From assembly GCA_965218425.1 (NCBI GenBank), contig OZ244621.1, positions 1,856,001-1,920,000 of the forward strand: 64,000 nucleotides of DNA, written 5' to 3'. A program made the translations under genes and the position numbers. Source of the stretch: an uncultured Candidatus Binatia bacterium (GTDB lineage Bacteria; Desulfobacterota; Binatia; UBA9968; CAXXLF01). Position 1 is the stretch's first letter. Each line of letters opens with the position of its first letter. The notes under the pieces are model-generated. The model worked only from the letters and a program-made list of their open reading frames with translations, had not been told where the DNA came from and searched no databases. Shown here piece after piece: positions 1,314 to 60,521 of this stretch.

Positions 1314-2861
1314 ATGAAAGTGGAACTACCCTCCATCTATAACGCCGCCACCACGTTTGTGGACGAGAACCTAGAACTCGGACGGGGAGGTAAGATTGCC
1401 ATCCACTATTTGGACCAACAACTCACCTACCAGGATCTATTTCAACGGGTCAACCAAGCCGGGAATGCCATTAAAGAACTCGGGGTGGGCGTTGGTGAGC
1501 GGGTGCTCATCGGTTTGCCTGACAGCCCGGAGTTCGCATTCGGGTTTTTTGGTGCCATCAAGACGGGTGCGGTTCCCATTCCAATCAATCCATGGATGAA
1601 GGCGCAGGACTACGAATATCTTCTTGAAGACAGCAGCGCGCCACTGATGATCATTCACGAATCGGTCATTCCTGACGTGGAGAAAATCTGGGATCGTCCA
1701 CGTCATCTGAAAAACGTCCTGGTGGTGGGCACCCCAAAAGGACGTGGCCTCTCCTATGAGTCCATGGTTGGTCGAGCCTCCACTGAACTCGCTGCGGAAC
1801 CGACCCACAGGGATGATATTGCCATGTGGCTTTACACATCGGGCAGCACCGGTTTCCCAAAGGGTGCCGTTCACCGCCACAGGGACATGATCACCATTAC
1901 GGATCTGTTTGTGAAGCCTGTCCTGGACATGAACGAAGACGACATCTGTTTTTCCGCCTCCAAGCTTTTTTTCGCATACGGCTTAGGCAATTCCCTCTAT
2001 TTCCCTTTTCGCTTTGGGGCATCCACGGTCCTGTGGCCGGATCGACCTGAACCGGAAAAGATCTTGCAGGCAATCGACAAATACCGGCCCACCTTTTTCT
2101 TCTCTGTGCCCACCCTCTATAGCAGGCTGCTTCGTGTGGAAAAGGAATACAATCTGGGATCTCTCAGGATCTGCCTGTCCTCCGGAGAGCCTCTGCCCCC
2201 GGCCCTTTTCCATCAGTGGAAAGAAAAGTTCGGACAAGAGTTATTGGATGTAGTGGGCTCGACTGAGGCCACCCATGATTTTCTGGCCAACCGTCCAGGT
2301 AAGGCAAAACCGGGCAGCAGCGGGCAGGTAACCCCGGCGTTCGAGGCTAAGATAATTGATGATGAAGGAAGAGAAGTCCCTGTGGGTGAAGTGGGGCATC
2401 TCATGGTGAAAGGTGACGCCACGGCCCCCTACTATTGGAATAAGGAAGAGCAGACGAAAAGGACCATGCAGGGGGACTGGCTCAAGACGGGGGATACCTA
2501 CTACCGGGACCAAGAGGGATACTTCTGGTACTGTGGGCGCTCCGACGACATGTTAAAAGTGGGAGGACTGTGGGTCTCTCCCATCGAAGTGGAAAACACC
2601 CTTATGGAGCATCCGTCGGTGCTGGAGGCTGCGGTTACCGGGGAAGCCGATCAGGATGGGTTGATCAAACCCAAGGCCTATGTGTTGTTGAAAAGCGAAT
2701 ATCAGGCGAGCGAACAGTTAAAGGAAGAGCTTCAATCCTTTGTTAAGAGCAAACTTGCCCCGTACAAGTATCCTCGTTGGCTTCAGTTCGTCGAAGAGCT
2801 GCCTAAAACGGTGACAGGAAAAATTCAGCGGTTTAAGTTGCGGGAGAAATCACAGTCATAA
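1314..2861 (+). CDS. Benzoate-CoA ligase family protein (AMP-dependent aryl-CoA ligase)
   Basis: YNAA..FVD N-terminus, WLYTSGSTGFPKG P-loop, KLFFAYGLGN, GSTE, GRSDDMLKVGG, PKTVTGKIQR. Confidence 0.88.
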   Translation: MKVELPSIYNAATTFVDENLELGRGGKIAIHYLDQQLTYQDLFQRVNQAGNAIKELGVGVGERVLIGLPDSPEFAFGFFGAIKTGAVPIPINPWMKAQDYEYLLEDSSAPLMIIHESVIPDVEKIWDRPRHLKNVLVVGTPKGRGLSYESMVGRASTELAAEPTHRDDIAMWLYTSGSTGFPKGAVHRHRDMITITDLFVKPVLDMNEDDICFSASKLFFAYGLGNSLYFPFRFGASTVLWPDRPEPEKILQAIDKYRPTFFFSVPTLYSRLLRVEKEYNLGSLRICLSSGEPLPPALFHQWKEKFGQELLDVVGSTEATHDFLANRPGKAKPGSSGQVTPAFEAKIIDDEGREVPVGEVGHLMVKGDATAPYYWNKEEQTKRTMQGDWLKTGDTYYRDQEGYFWYCGRSDDMLKVGGLWVSPIEVENTLMEHPSVLEAAVTGEADQDGLIKPKAYVLLKSEYQASEQLKEELQSFVKSKLAPYKYPRWLQFVEELPKTVTGKIQRFKLREKSQS

Positions 2862-55768: not shown

Positions 55769-56077
55769 CTAATCCAGATCGATATCCTTCAACGGTTTTG
55801 TGATGGGTTCCTCCTTGGCCTTCTTGAGGAGGTCCTGAAATTTACGATCCAAGACTTTCCCCTTGCTCTTTTCCGCTTCCTTTAATTGTTGGTATTTCTC
55901 GTCACGGCGGGTGGCCTCTTCCTCAAGCATCCTGGGGGCGTCCTTTAGCTGAGCCACGGGGTGGGGTCTGGCGGGGACTTTGTGTTCCAGCACTGCCGCC
56001 AGCGCCGTATCTATGGTGAGGGTGGCTTCGCAGCAAGGGCAGGTCACCTGTATGGTAGAGGCGTTTTTATTTGACAT
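55769..56077 (-). CDS. Hypothetical protein, N-terminal CPCC ribbon plus coiled coil
   Basis: V.CPCC.A.L.ID, helical C-terminus ending DIDLD; GAGGAG RBS. Confidence 0.7.
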   Translation of the reverse strand: MSNKNASTIQVTCPCCEATLTIDTALAAVLEHKVPARPHPVAQLKDAPRMLEEEATRRDEKYQQLKEAEKSKGKVLDRKFQDLLKKAKEEPITKPLKDIDLD

Positions 56078-56101
56078 TGGTCAGTTCTCCTCATTCGCCC
56101 A

Positions 56102-56470
56102 TTATCCCCTGATTTCGATCAGTTCTCCATCGGGGCCTCGAAAGACTACCCTTCGCCAACCCTCTTCCCTCTTCTCCCGTGCAGCCGTGGGGTGAGATTT
56201 CTGTGCGATTTCGACGCCTTTGTTCTCGAGCTCGGCAACCGCCCCATCGAAATGGTCCGTTTCCAGACAGAAATGAAAGCCTTTCATGGGGCCATCGGAC
56301 CGATGAGTGAGTTCCAGCACCGTGTCACCCAGCTTGAGATAGGCGATCTTCATGCCGTTACCCGCTGCATGTTGGAAGTATTTCTTAAAGCCGAATGTGA
56401 GTTCATAAAAATCCACCGAGCGGTCCAAGTCTTTCACATGCAGCGCCACATGGTCGATACGCTTGTACAT
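56102..56470 (-). CDS. VOC/glyoxalase family protein
   Basis: IDHVAL.V.DL..S..FY..FG, LEL, HFCL, F.GPDGELIE. Confidence 0.9.
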   Translation of the reverse strand: MYKRIDHVALHVKDLDRSVDFYELTFGFKKYFQHAAGNGMKIAYLKLGDTVLELTHRSDGPMKGFHFCLETDHFDGAVAELENKGVEIAQKSHPTAAREKREEGWRRVVFRGPDGELIEIRG

Positions 56471-56707
56471 GACGTCTCACCTCCCGTTCAGCATACTATT
56501 TCGTATGCCGGTTTTGCAAAACCGTCCATCTCTTGGACGCTTGATTGATAAGCGTAAAATTGGTACTGAAATGTAAGGGTGAAGCTAACACAGAGAACTT
56601 CTCCCTTCAACGCCGTTTGCGGCGCCCGAGCGCCTAACTGTTGATTTCAGTCACAGGCAAAGACCAACTCCAAATTCGCCACAGCAATAAAAAGGCTATT
56701 GGACGCC

Positions 56708-57406
56708 ATGCCGATTTATAAGTTAATCGATGATGTCGTGTTTCCGCACCCCAGTGACGCCCAACAGGACGGGCTCTTGGCCGTGGGTGGAGACCTGAGT
56801 GCAAAGCGGGTCTTGGCAGGCTACCAGATGGGTATCTTCCCGTGGTACTCGGACGGACAGCCCATTCTATGGTGGTCTCCCGACCCCCGCACGATCTTCG
56901 AACCCGATAGTATCATCATCTCCAAAGCGCTGCGCCAGACGCTGAAAAAGGGTGTCTATGAGGTCACCTTCGATAAGGCTTTTGTGGATGTCATAAAAGC
57001 CTGTAAAGAAGTGCCTCGAAAAGGGCAGCAGGGAACCTGGATCACGTCGGAGATGCAGAAGGCCTATATCCATTTGCACGAACTGGGATATGCCCACTCG
57101 GTGGAGAGTTGGTCCGAGGGGGAACTGGCGGGAGGTCTTTACGGGGTGTCCCTGGGAAGGTGCTTTTTCGGTGAGTCGATGTTTTTTCGCAAGACGGATG
57201 CCTCGAAGGTCGCGTTGGTGGTTTTACTGCAGCGATTAAAGGCATGGGGCTTTCAAGTGATCGATGCGCAGATGACCAATCAACATCTTTTGAGCCTGGG
57301 GGCCAAAAATGTGCCGCGGGATGTATTTCTCAGTCGGTTGAAAGAGGCGCTGCGCTTTCCCACCCTCAAGGGGGGCTGGGACGGAACCACGGGATCCTAC
57401 ATGTAA
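56708..57406 (+). CDS. aat: Leucyl/phenylalanyl-tRNA--protein transferase
   Basis: GLLAVGGDL, GIFPW, WWSPDPR, TWIT, AHSVE, GGLYG, FFGESMF, ASKVA. Confidence 0.95.
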   Translation: MPIYKLIDDVVFPHPSDAQQDGLLAVGGDLSAKRVLAGYQMGIFPWYSDGQPILWWSPDPRTIFEPDSIIISKALRQTLKKGVYEVTFDKAFVDVIKACKEVPRKGQQGTWITSEMQKAYIHLHELGYAHSVESWSEGELAGGLYGVSLGRCFFGESMFFRKTDASKVALVVLLQRLKAWGFQVIDAQMTNQHLLSLGAKNVPRDVFLSRLKEALRFPTLKGGWDGTTGSYM

Positions 57407-57705: not shown

Positions 57706-58965
57706 TTAGCTGCCTGGGCAACGGCCGGTGTTTAGATGAGACTCGAAATCGCCGTGGAATAGCTTCACGGCGCTCTCGATGGGCGGTCCGGGCATGTTAA
57801 TCAGTGCGCAAAATCCCTTTCCCCTGTTGAAGGCAAGGACTTTGCCCGGTTGATCCAGGAGGGCTGCCTGCCCCTCACCCTGTTGGACCTTCTTGAGGAT
57901 TGCCACCAGCATGTTGGTTTCCATGCGGCAGGCTGGGCATTGATCGCAGGACTCCCGCGCAAAAAATTCCGCAATGTTCAGGGTATCCTCAACAAGGCAC
58001 TGTCCCTCGGTGATAAAGCGGACCACACCGCAGCCGATGGAAGAGCCCATATCGCGGTAACTCTGGTGGTCCATCGGTGCGTCCAGCGTATCGGGCAGGA
58101 GAAAGGCCGTAGAAGGGCCGCCGGGCTGGATAGCCTTGATGGTCTTGTTGCCCTTGATTCCACCGCCGCATTCCTCCAGCAAAAAGCGTAGTGGAGTGCC
58201 GAAGGGCAGCTCGTAGACTCCCGGTCGTTCCACTTCCTCATTCAAGGAGAAGATCATGGTGCCCGGGCTCTCCGCGGTTCCGAAGCTCCGGTACCACTGT
58301 GCGCCTTTAGCCAGGATTGGCGCCAGGTTCGCCAGTGTCTCCACGTTGTTGACGGTGCTGGGCTTGGCAAAAAGCCCCGCGGTGGCGGGGAAGGGCGGCT
58401 TCTCCCGGGGCTTTGGTTCTCTGCCCTCCAGTGCCTCCAGTGCCGCGGTATCCTCCCCGGCCACATAGTTGGTGGACGCCGCGTGAACGACAATATCGAG
58501 GTCAAAATTGCCGCCCAGTATCTTGCTTCCCAGATAGCCGGCCTTTTCCGCTTCGGCCAGGGCCTCGGTCATGCTCCGGGTCGCGGCCTTGTAGTCCTGA
58601 TTGATGTAGAGATAAGCCTTCGACGCCCCGACGGCATAGGCGGCGAGGACAACGCCCTCCAGCACCAGGTGAGGGAGGTTTTCCATCAGGAGACGATCTT
58701 TTTTGCTTCCCGGTTCGTCTTCGCCGCCATTGAGCACGACGTAATGAGGTTGCTCCCCGCACTCGGCGGTAATAGCCATTTTCTTTCCCGTGGGAAATCC
58801 GGCCCCTCCACGGCCCTTGAGTCCGGACTCGGTCACCTCTTTGATGATGGCGTCAGGAGAGCCCTTAACGGCTTTTTTAAGGGCGCCGTAGCCGCCCCGC
58901 GCCTGGTAGTCTTTAAGTCCCTCTTTTCCTTCCACGATCCCCCGTGGGAAGAGAATTCCCTCCAT
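57706..58965 (-). CDS. Stand-alone NuoF-like FMN/[4Fe-4S] NAD(P)H oxidoreductase subunit
   Basis: SGLKGRGGAGFPTG, EDEPG..KDR, YVAGEDTA, KPPFP, NNVETLAN, ESCDQCPACR...C; no other nuo genes adjacent. Confidence 0.9.
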   Translation of the reverse strand: MEGILFPRGIVEGKEGLKDYQARGGYGALKKAVKGSPDAIIKEVTESGLKGRGGAGFPTGKKMAITAECGEQPHYVVLNGGEDEPGSKKDRLLMENLPHLVLEGVVLAAYAVGASKAYLYINQDYKAATRSMTEALAEAEKAGYLGSKILGGNFDLDIVVHAASTNYVAGEDTAALEALEGREPKPREKPPFPATAGLFAKPSTVNNVETLANLAPILAKGAQWYRSFGTAESPGTMIFSLNEEVERPGVYELPFGTPLRFLLEECGGGIKGNKTIKAIQPGGPSTAFLLPDTLDAPMDHQSYRDMGSSIGCGVVRFITEGQCLVEDTLNIAEFFARESCDQCPACRMETNMLVAILKKVQQGEGQAALLDQPGKVLAFNRGKGFCALINMPGPPIESAVKLFHGDFESHLNTGRCPGS

Positions 58966-58973
58966 GGGCCCTC

Positions 58974-59294
58974 CTAGAAAATACCGGTATCGAGTAGCTG
59001 GTAGATGAGGTCTTTGAGTGAGCTGTCGATCGTGTCGAGTCGTTTGACGTCGGGTCCGCCCGAGAGATGCTCAACGATTTCATCCACGTCCTCCATCTTG
59101 ACTCCGGCGTACCAGGTCTTTTCGGGGTAAAGGACGATGTTGGGGCCTTCCTGGCAGGCGCCGAAGCACATGTACGATTTGACCTCCACATCGCTGAGGC
59201 CCTTTTCATTCGCCTTCTTCTCGATCTCTTTCATGATCTCTTCAGAACCCCGACTCTTGCAATCGATATTCTGACAGACTAGACAGATGGACAT
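58974..59294 (-). CDS. Thioredoxin-like [2Fe-2S] ferredoxin (NuoE C-terminal-like)
   Basis: C-x4-C...CFGAC..GPN..YP...WY..V...D..EIV.H. Confidence 0.88.
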   Translation of the reverse strand: MSICLVCQNIDCKSRGSEEIMKEIEKKANEKGLSDVEVKSYMCFGACQEGPNIVLYPEKTWYAGVKMEDVDEIVEHLSGGPDVKRLDTIDSSLKDLIYQLLDTGIF

Positions 59295-59347
59295 CGCTGA
59301 ATAATCTCCTTCCCTGGGGGCTGAACTCGAGGGTGGCTCTTCGGGGA

Positions 59348-60448
59348 TCAGTTCATCTGCAGAACCCAGTCCTTGTCCTTGAAGATTTCGCTCAACCGGC
59401 GCTCATCTTCCTCCGTAGGCAACGACTCGGTCAAGTGCTTCTCATAGTCCTGTTGAGAGAGTAGCCGGCCGTCCACACCGTATGTCTTGCCCGCATGCTC
59501 GCCGATGGAGCGATGGAACTTCAAGTCAGGAACGGTCAACTTGGGTTCCCCCTCAGGAATAGACTGGTTTAGGGATTCCACCAAGCCTCGAGCTTCCTTA
59601 AGGTATTGCTCCAACGCCAGCTCGTTGAGGCGTCCCTTGTCCGGTTCTTCCTTGCGTTCATGCTCATCGTAACGGCCCTTGAGGCCCCAGACATAGGCCC
59701 ACTGTGCAGAGGAGGATTGAGTGGTGCCGAAGAGGTCGTAGGCCGTGGACAGCCACTTGTTAAAGTATTTCTGAACGATGGGGAGGGGAATTTTTTGCGC
59801 CTTGACGATGCGGGTCAGTCCCGTGTTCCCGGTAAACATGTGGAAGAACTCTTCCTTCAGCATGGCCGTTACGCTCTCGGCAAGCGGGGCGAAGGCGGAG
59901 TGGCTCAGCATGGTGAGCTGGTACTTCCCGTCGCGGTCCACGAACTGAGTGTAGGTAAAGAAGTCGAGCCAGTTGCTCACGGGCCGGTTAAAAGAGCCCA
60001 GGAGACGATTTCCCTGTCCCGCACGGCGTTGCAGCAGCTTTTCCGCCTCGCGTTTCCCGGTATCGCCGAAATAGGTTACCAGCAAGTAGCACATCTGCCA
60101 TCCGTGGCGCATCTCCTCGCTGTTGACCCGGATGAGCGCGGCGCGGTCGTAATCCGTGGGCGCGGCATCCAGGAGGTTCTTTTGCTGTTCCACCGAGGCG
60201 AATTCCGTGTCTCCCTGATAAACGATCAGGTTCAGCAGGGCGTCCGTAATGGTTTGGTTGGGGATCTGAGTCGTCCTTTTCCACTTCGGCTGTCCTTTAA
60301 AATCGCCGAATTCGATTTCAGCGGCATGGAGCTCGCCGAGCTTGGTCTCGAATTTGTAGTCTCCCAAAAGCGTCGCGTCATAGCCGATGTCCCTATGCCA
60401 TTCGTGGAAACAGTCGATCCAGTCATCGAAAGTAGCGATTCTCGCCAT
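59348..60448 (-). CDS. BoxB-like di-iron aryl-CoA epoxidase (PaaA/BoxB ferritin-like family)
   Basis: QGDTE.ASVEQQ, EEMRH, DRDGKYQL, PLA...ML.EEFFHMF.G, DLFG...S, GLKGR: BoxB-type di-iron ligand pattern. Confidence 0.85.
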   Translation of the reverse strand: MARIATFDDWIDCFHEWHRDIGYDATLLGDYKFETKLGELHAAEIEFGDFKGQPKWKRTTQIPNQTITDALLNLIVYQGDTEFASVEQQKNLLDAAPTDYDRAALIRVNSEEMRHGWQMCYLLVTYFGDTGKREAEKLLQRRAGQGNRLLGSFNRPVSNWLDFFTYTQFVDRDGKYQLTMLSHSAFAPLAESVTAMLKEEFFHMFTGNTGLTRIVKAQKIPLPIVQKYFNKWLSTAYDLFGTTQSSSAQWAYVWGLKGRYDEHERKEEPDKGRLNELALEQYLKEARGLVESLNQSIPEGEPKLTVPDLKFHRSIGEHAGKTYGVDGRLLSQQDYEKHLTESLPTEEDERRLSEIFKDKDWVLQMN

Positions 60449-60476
60449 TGGCTTTCCTCCTCCGGGGTCTAATTAG

Positions 60477-60494
60477 TTCGAACGATCGTTCGAA
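60477..60494. promoter_or_regulatory. Perfect 18-bp palindromic operator
   Basis: TTCGAACGATCGTTCGAA, 28 nt upstream of the boxB-like start. Confidence 0.8.
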
Positions 60495-60521
60495 TGTATG
60501 AACTGGAGCCGTGAAAGTCAA
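60493..60521 (-). promoter_or_regulatory. sigma70-type promoter of the boxB-like operon
   Basis: Minus strand TTGACT-N17-TACATT. Confidence 0.7.

Follow-up and report, generated by a model that had tools for sequence, protein, structure and literature searches.

We analyzed a 64,000-nucleotide window of contig OZ244621.1 from an uncultured Candidatus Binatia bacterium. Toward one end it carries a trio of minus-strand genes for a short BoxB-like di-iron oxygenase, a thioredoxin-like [2Fe-2S] ferredoxin, and a NuoF-like flavoprotein, here called NuoF'. The genome is one contig and is 97% complete. The features of the locus, in window coordinates, are as follows.

60493..60521, minus strand: sigma70-type promoter candidate (TTGACT-17-TACATT; 9/12 matches), overlapping the conserved operator
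60477..60494, no strand: 18-bp palindromic operator candidate, matching the PaaR (TetR) consensus CNAACGNNCGTTNG
59348..60448, minus strand: short BoxB-like di-iron oxygenase, 366 amino acids (aa), with ligands E82, E112, H115, D171, E200, and H203
58974..59294, minus strand: thioredoxin-like [2Fe-2S] ferredoxin, 106 aa, with C7, C12, C43, and C47 and a conserved C-terminal tail
57706..58965, minus strand: NuoF-like flavin mononucleotide (FMN)/[4Fe-4S] NAD(P)H oxidoreductase (NuoF'), 419 aa, of a distinct subfamily, with motifs NGGEDEPG and YVAGEDTA and cysteines C340, C343, C346, and C386

The three open reading frames (ORFs) lie as described in an earlier interpretation made from the sequence alone (the sequence-only reading), separated by 53 and 8 nt, and have Shine-Dalgarno-like sites. 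The neighbors are tkt upstream and aat, convergent, downstream; none of the genes adjoining the trio is a boxA, boxC, paa, or further nuo gene, as that reading had also stated. Its description of the system as self-contained holds for the locus and fails for the pathway, whose remaining genes sit elsewhere in the genome. Intact frames and invariant ligands rule out a pseudogene.

Linkage of the trio across genomes

A scan of GTDB with the oxygenase recovered at least 594 relatives; the best 80 were kept, 29 of them close (73 to 81% identity) and 51 distant, and among these 80 the closest relatives of the locus belong to Ca. Binatia-like genomes. In the close loci, the ferredoxin gene is next after the oxygenase gene in 29/29 and nuoF' follows in 28/29, the last locus stopping at a contig edge. 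A reciprocal scan with the NuoF' subfamily motifs gave 146 loci; among the best 80, ferredoxin is present in 79, boxA in none, and nuoG in none. For 72 of these 80 there is room (at least 1.7 kb) upstream of NuoF', and 65 of the 72 have an intact oxygenase gene there. Thus, the linkage of the trio is conserved in both directions, which bears out the expectation that fdx and nuoF would travel with the short oxygenase. Reciprocal linkage across several phyla rules out chance adjacency of the three genes.

Farther away, at 54 to 64% oxygenase identity, the trio is found in Acidobacteriota (L191, L192, L193, and L240), in Tectomicrobia (L203), in an unclassified genome (L196), and in L257. A BoxC-like crotonase adjoins it in L191 to L193, L196, L203, and L240, not in L257, and aldehyde dehydrogenases do so too in four of those six loci. 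Of the 51 distant loci, by contrast with the close ones, only 4 have the ferredoxin nearby, 1 has a broken NuoF', and most short BoxBs outside Binatia lack the ferredoxin-NuoF' module. A control set of 80 canonical boxB loci has BoxA in 75, BoxC in 77, ferredoxin in none, and weak NuoF matches in 4; boxA is found at 0/80 short-BoxB loci versus these 75/80. Neighbors in the oxygenase loci were counted by targeted tblastn. In 15/51 distant loci (e.g., L067:7134-8396), members of a second short-boxB clade face a convergent gene for a GlpC-like CCG/Fe-S protein, which is also present in L192.

The short oxygenase and its candidate reductase

The oxygenase belongs to the PaaA_PaaC family, with BoxB as its best model, although at 245 bits it does not reach the TIGR03225 cutoff of 499.1; against the PaaA model TIGR02156 it scores 41 bits (cutoff, 280). 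Its best structure match is BoxB (3PER; E value, 4.7e-55), compared with an E value of ∼1e-6 for PaaA. An AlphaFold model with a predicted local distance difference test score (pLDDT) of 95 superimposes on BoxB with a template modeling (TM) score of 0.90 by query length and 0.70 by target length, versus 0.53 on PaaA, where identity in the structural alignment is ∼18%. The BoxB iron ligands E120, E150, H153, D211, E240, and H243 correspond to E82, E112, H115, D171, E200, and H203 here, and all six are invariant in 126/126 distinct short BoxB sequences. Of the listed benzoyl-pocket residues Q116, T119, S123, F193, F203, F206, and T210 (BoxB numbering as given in PMC5489048, with positions counted by hand on a BoxB alignment), 5/7 are kept: Q116, T119, S123, and F193 are invariant in the 126 short sequences, and F203 is present in 125.

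The sequence-only reading was right that 366 aa is clearly shorter than BoxB, the difference being ∼105 aa. Stretches of 19, 24, 19, 20, 4, and 16 residues are absent relative to a canonical BoxB (P0153), none of them in the ligand-bearing residues 30 to 215, and the shortening thus appears to trim the periphery and to spare the active site. Since all deletions of at least 4 residues fall outside the ligand stretch, the length is no evidence for a different substrate, contrary to what had been proposed. In a tree of 54 rows made by a quick method, canonical BoxBs form one long-branched group whose place among the short forms is not fixed, so we claim no direction of evolution; the trio label requires at least three changes on the starred branches of that tree. 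Public annotations name the oxygenase "benzoyl-CoA 2,3-dioxygenase component B" or "phenylacetic acid catabolic protein."

The only other PF05138 member in this genome is a distant 238-aa PaaA-like di-iron gene with intact ligand motifs (C1:897066-899858; L094:7067-9859), followed by etfB and etfA; a homologue (54%) sits inside the box cluster of L196, and the product is possibly a di-iron enzyme fed by electron transfer flavoprotein. What remains of a second short boxB, 98 codons with a stop and 57 to 62% identity to the family, lies at C1:332084-332350 (L093:5085-5351), downstream of a UbiD-like gene.

The ferredoxin is of the thioredoxin-like [2Fe-2S] family with four conserved cysteines. 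Its best matches are the free Aquifex ferredoxin 1f37 and the N-terminal domain of HydB, and it covers only positions 68 to 144 of the 145-position NuoE profile. NuoF' has the domains Complex1_51K, SLBB, and NADH_4Fe-4S; it scores 428 bits against TIGR01959, short of the cutoff of 558.65, and its N3-type cysteines C340, C343, C346, and C386 are present in 27/27 sequences. A separate canonical nuoE-nuoF pair resides in a long nuo operon elsewhere in the genome, its nuoF product being 40% identical to NuoF'. By these comparisons, NuoF' is a subfamily of its own, apart from respiratory NuoF. That full nuo operon and the protein's own motifs rule out a complex I fragment. D172 is Asp in 27/27 sequences. 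This position corresponds to E183 of Escherichia coli NuoF, which has a role in the choice between NADH and NADPH; the Asp at most hints that NADPH is used.

BoxA, the partner that the trio was suspected to lack, is absent from this genome by profile search and exceeds its cutoff in 0/32 short-BoxB genomes. PF00175, the FNR domain that BoxA shares with PaaE and phthalate dioxygenase reductase, has no match in this 97% complete genome, nor has PF14759. Across genomes, PF00175 occurs in 12/12 that lack the NuoF' module versus 10/27 that have it (one genome of unknown status was excluded), a contrast that is confounded by phylogeny and incomplete assemblies and that would fit substitution of an FNR reductase by the NuoF' module.

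Two observations concern the ferredoxin-oxygenase pair. The ferredoxin stays beside the oxygenase where nuoF' sits elsewhere (L042, L057, and L061), suggesting that the ferredoxin is the direct electron donor to the oxygenase. A two-chain model of the pair scored 0.39 (runs, 0.24, 0.39, and 0.45) versus 0.00 for the best control, with contacts agreeing between runs at ≥88% and partner pLDDT of ≥85; the mark was reached by 116/157 solved pairs and 2/215 mismatched pairs, but at scores of ≤0.60 these comprised only 18 solved pairs and both mismatches. The structure modeling that had been suggested lends the complex weak support. Exchange of a reductase is plausible because BoxB needs merely a transient, substoichiometric one (PMC4498308).

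Operator and pathway context

The promoter candidate is weak alone, because the scan found 2 sites versus 1.0 ± 1.0 in shuffled sequences. Its −10 box is overlapped by the perfect 18-bp palindrome at 60477 to 60494, and the overlap supports it. Both elements had been assigned to the operon by the sequence-only reading. The palindrome core lies 33 to 99 nt upstream of the oxygenase gene in 27/28 close loci with upstream DNA, the 28th having one mismatch. The strict pattern occurs twice in the 4.46-Mb genome; the core alone occurs 67 times (59 expected). With a position weight matrix (PWM) built from 51 sites, the operator ranks first genome-wide, scoring 32.3 versus 14.9 for the next site. In the distant loci the core is within the locus in 23/51, mostly 3 to 5 kb upstream, heading TetR-crotonase-oxygenase operons. 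No terminator-like site was found behind nuoF' in a scan that performed at chance level. Two metatranscriptome runs contained only 5 to 6% of the sequence words, each yielding a single short exact match within the oxygenase gene, which says nothing about co-transcription. Four identical 18-bp matches to the PWM (C1:695310, 728383, 740836, and 4375300) are probably part of a repeated element.

The distant loci also outline a pathway. Their neighbors (n = 51) include TetR in 25, a BoxC-like crotonase in 31, a PaaG-like crotonase in 26, aldehyde dehydrogenases in 15 and 2, a CoA transferase in 10, an HcrA-like Mo enzyme in 9, a thiolase in 7, and a BzdR-type regulator in 3. Homologues are encoded elsewhere in this genome: the crotonase at 60% identity, aldehyde dehydrogenases at 80% and 66%, TetR at 43 to 45%, and the thiolase at 59%. 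Two-domain BoxC was found neither in this genome, by profile search, nor in the short loci. The best BoxC match in the genome is a single-domain crotonase (C1:3337771-3338553) that shares the motifs of the BoxC N-terminal domain, the only catalytic domain of BoxC (PMC4498308).

One further gene of the window bears on the substrate.

1314..2861, plus strand: unlinked benzoate-CoA ligase family gene (TIGR02262, 591 bits versus a cutoff of 375.25)

It sits behind an aldehyde dehydrogenase gene whose product is 66% identical to the neighbors in L041 and L049 (an orthologue of the aldehyde dehydrogenases that flank short boxB) and is a candidate supplier of the substrate. The benzoate-CoA ligase family is over cutoff in 17/24 genomes; PaaK is over its strict cutoff in 0/24, with two near, and is below it in this genome. 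For this reason benzoyl-type CoA substrates are favored, with phenylacetyl-CoA as a real rival. A cluster at C1:4353855-4370373 encodes a PaaK-like ligase (208 bits), HcrCAB-like proteins (848 bits, below cutoff), a Rieske oxygenase, an acyl-CoA ligase, and, from a look at the N termini, three UbiD-like proteins. Genome-wide, there are 32 large subunits of xanthine dehydrogenase/HcrA-like molybdoenzymes with E values of ≤1e-60.

Competing explanations and known systems

We consider it probable that the trio encodes an epoxidase of the benzoyl-CoA type that draws its electrons from NAD(P)H through NuoF' and the ferredoxin. The short oxygenase would be a trimmed BoxB-type di-iron monooxygenase that epoxidizes the ring of benzoyl-CoA, or of a ring-substituted benzoyl-CoA, with O2. 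[quoted passage not shown] Ring opening would fall to unlinked genes: the single-domain crotonase, resembling the catalytic N-terminal half of BoxC, a PaaG-like crotonase, aldehyde dehydrogenases, and β-oxidation enzymes.

Several observations weigh against this interpretation. The linkage counts are not independent: Binatia-like relatives account for most trio loci, and the two scans share some contigs. The module is not a general feature of short BoxBs, since 22/32 short-BoxB genomes gave no NuoF of the NuoF' subfamily. Among NuoF' loci with room, 3/72 retain only a C-terminal remnant of the oxygenase gene and 4/72 have none. The PF00175 contrast carries the confounding stated above, and an FprA-like reductase plus a Rieske ferredoxin could form an alternative chain in this genome. 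F206Y and T210V/I are fixed in the short forms, whereas canonical BoxBs have F and T in 80/80, and V at the T210 position equals the PaaA residue. The palindrome equals the Thermus PaaR consensus, which is of the phenylacetyl-CoA type (a match of sequence only; PMC6651687), and by the operator PWM 0/8 other candidate pathway promoters in this genome carry the site.

The operator match and the PaaA-like valine would also fit a model in which the same electron chain serves a single-subunit phenylacetyl-CoA 1,2-epoxidase that replaces PaaABCE, with a PaaG-like isomerase and a separate hydrolase and aldehyde dehydrogenase for PaaZ. The PaaG-like crotonase in 26/51 distant loci and lower-pathway genes that resemble paaF/G/H/J point the same way. 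We nevertheless regard this as unlikely: in both sequence and fold the oxygenase is far nearer BoxB, PaaK stays below its cutoff (a strict one) in all 24 genomes and in this one, and the BzdR-type and Hcr-like neighbors indicate benzoyl-CoA. TetR regulators of the PaaR kind can moreover change effector, as MbdR shows (PMC4424350).

Another question is whether the oxygenase is the module's main client. Of 100 candidates scored in this genome, 93 match the Rieske domain. A Rieske motif of the oxygenase alpha type is present in 84 long frames, and no protein with PF00175 or PF14759 is encoded to serve them. The only classical donor candidates are the FprA-like reductase (C1:2446902-2448407; E value, 1.7e-32 to FprA) and one Rieske ferredoxin (C1:3101947-3102255). 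Ferredoxin and NuoF' might then be a shared NAD(P)H-to-oxygenase supply. In Binatia this supply would be used mainly by the many small di-iron and orphan Rieske oxygenases, and its position after short boxB would be a historical leftover. In keeping with this, fdx-nuoF outlasts the loss of the oxygenase gene in six Binatia-like loci (L226, L243, L245, L246, L253, and L254), where the operator core is missing as well, and a second copy of the ferredoxin gene is found next to another PaaA-like gene in L098 and next to nuoF' only in L096. Against it, LigXa_C-type oxygenases occur in 5/5 Binatia-like genomes and in 0/8 other module-bearing genomes, so the distribution of the module follows short BoxB, not the Rieske expansion. 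Tested genomes without an oxygenase gene before fdx-nuoF retain an intact paralog (60 to 61%) elsewhere in 5/5, the FprA-like reductase and Rieske ferredoxin could feed Rieske enzymes, and the operon here stands under one operator, of the aryl-CoA type. On balance, we find a mainly Rieske-directed role improbable. A broader proposal, which we offer as doubtful, is that NuoF'-ferredoxin is a new oxygenase reductase class that derived from the diaphorase module of complex I and hydrogenases and arose with short BoxB, and that in Binatia without FNR- or GR-type reductases it also became a common supply for dozens of orphan Rieske (∼84 here) and small di-iron enzymes. Some 3 kb from the FprA-like gene, at ∼C1:2443185 (L277:3186-4061), a 291-aa ORF with two E-x-x-H-like motifs looks ferritin-like/di-iron by eye.

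The module could also feed a di-iron protein of other aryl-CoA chemistry, either ring hydroxylation or mainly deoxygenation of the epoxide, serving as a safety valve. P121F near the metal site is fixed, along with F206Y and T210V/I, in nearly all 126 short sequences and differs from 80/80 canonical BoxBs; PaaAC removes epoxide oxygen, and the same has been computed for BoxB (PMC5489048); and there is no two-domain BoxC. Yet a crotonase with motifs of the BoxC N-terminal domain, as expected for epoxide/oxepin hydrolysis, accompanies the oxygenase in 31/51 distant loci, and short BoxB is the sole PF05138 member in many genomes. Chemistry other than epoxidation thus seems very unlikely to us.

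The closest known system is BoxAB of Azoarcus (Aromatoleum) evansii (BoxB structures 3PER, 3PM5, 3PF7, and 3Q1G). The trio resembles it in fold (TM, 0.90), the six ligands, 5/7 pocket residues, the lack of a structural subunit, and separate reductase genes. It differs in an oxygenase that is shorter outside the ligand helices and bears F206Y, T210V/I, and P121F; in single-domain crotonases where BoxAB has two-domain BoxC; in its PaaR-type operator; and in NuoF' plus a thioredoxin-like ferredoxin in place of BoxA. BoxA itself contains FAD and two [4Fe-4S] clusters and uses NADPH (PMC4498308). The trio would work like BoxAB but is not a member, because the reductase, BoxC, and score tests fail. 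With PaaABC(D)E and the PaaR regulon it shares the di-iron family PF05138, an operator equal to the PaaR consensus, and, in relatives, PaaG-like and lower-pathway neighbors; the distant alignment with PaaA (∼18% identity; TM, 0.53), the absence of a PaaE-type domain from the genome, and the PaaK score set it apart. Neither PaaB nor PaaC is encoded next to the oxygenase; a genome-wide search for PaaB was not made.

NuoF' shares its FMN/NAD(P)H domain, SLBB, N3-type four-cysteine cluster, and thioredoxin-like [2Fe-2S] partner with NuoEF, HydB, FdhB, and BamH. Unlike these, it stands alone, with a NuoG-like partner in 0/80 loci, and carries the motifs NGGEDEPG and YVAGEDTA; the ferredoxin has no counterpart of the N-terminal domain of NuoE and is more closely allied to the HydB N terminus and to free Aquifex-type ferredoxins. 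To our knowledge, known aryl-CoA epoxidases use FNR-family reductases (BoxA and PaaE). Within aryl-CoA metabolism, the closest precedent for a NuoF-like subunit is BamH of class II benzoyl-CoA reductase (PMC8805022). That enzyme is reductive and anaerobic, whereas the presumed acceptor of NuoF' is an O2-activating di-iron enzyme, and the NuoG-like BamI partner of its BamGHI module is likewise found in 0/80 NuoF' loci. The sequence-only reading knew of no description of this architecture, and a full-text literature search, thin in coverage of subscription journals and without supplements, returned none of a short BoxB with a NuoF/ferredoxin reductase.

If true, the NuoF/thioredoxin-ferredoxin reductase would give di-iron oxygenases a further class of electron input. 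It would also assign a new function to thioredoxin-like ferredoxins that occur free and to NuoF copies that stand alone, which annotation readily takes for complex I. The trio suggests that uncultured Binatia, Acidobacteriota, and Gemmatimonadota have a Box-like pathway for aromatics, which boxABC profiles miss because BoxB, BoxA, and BoxC all fall under cutoff. Should the pair also feed orphan Rieske oxygenases, this would explain how ∼84 of them are powered without a classical reductase domain. With three small soluble proteins, the system is directly testable.

Two further observations concern the surroundings of the operon. Behind it, at window positions 55769 to 57406, lie aat, a glyoxalase-family gene, and a gene for a 102-aa protein without a Pfam family; the same order is found in ∼10 close loci and is probably unrelated synteny. 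Directly upstream, 19/29 close loci have ptsP, encoding enzyme I-Ntr (e.g., L038:3495-5894), which in this genome is located elsewhere.

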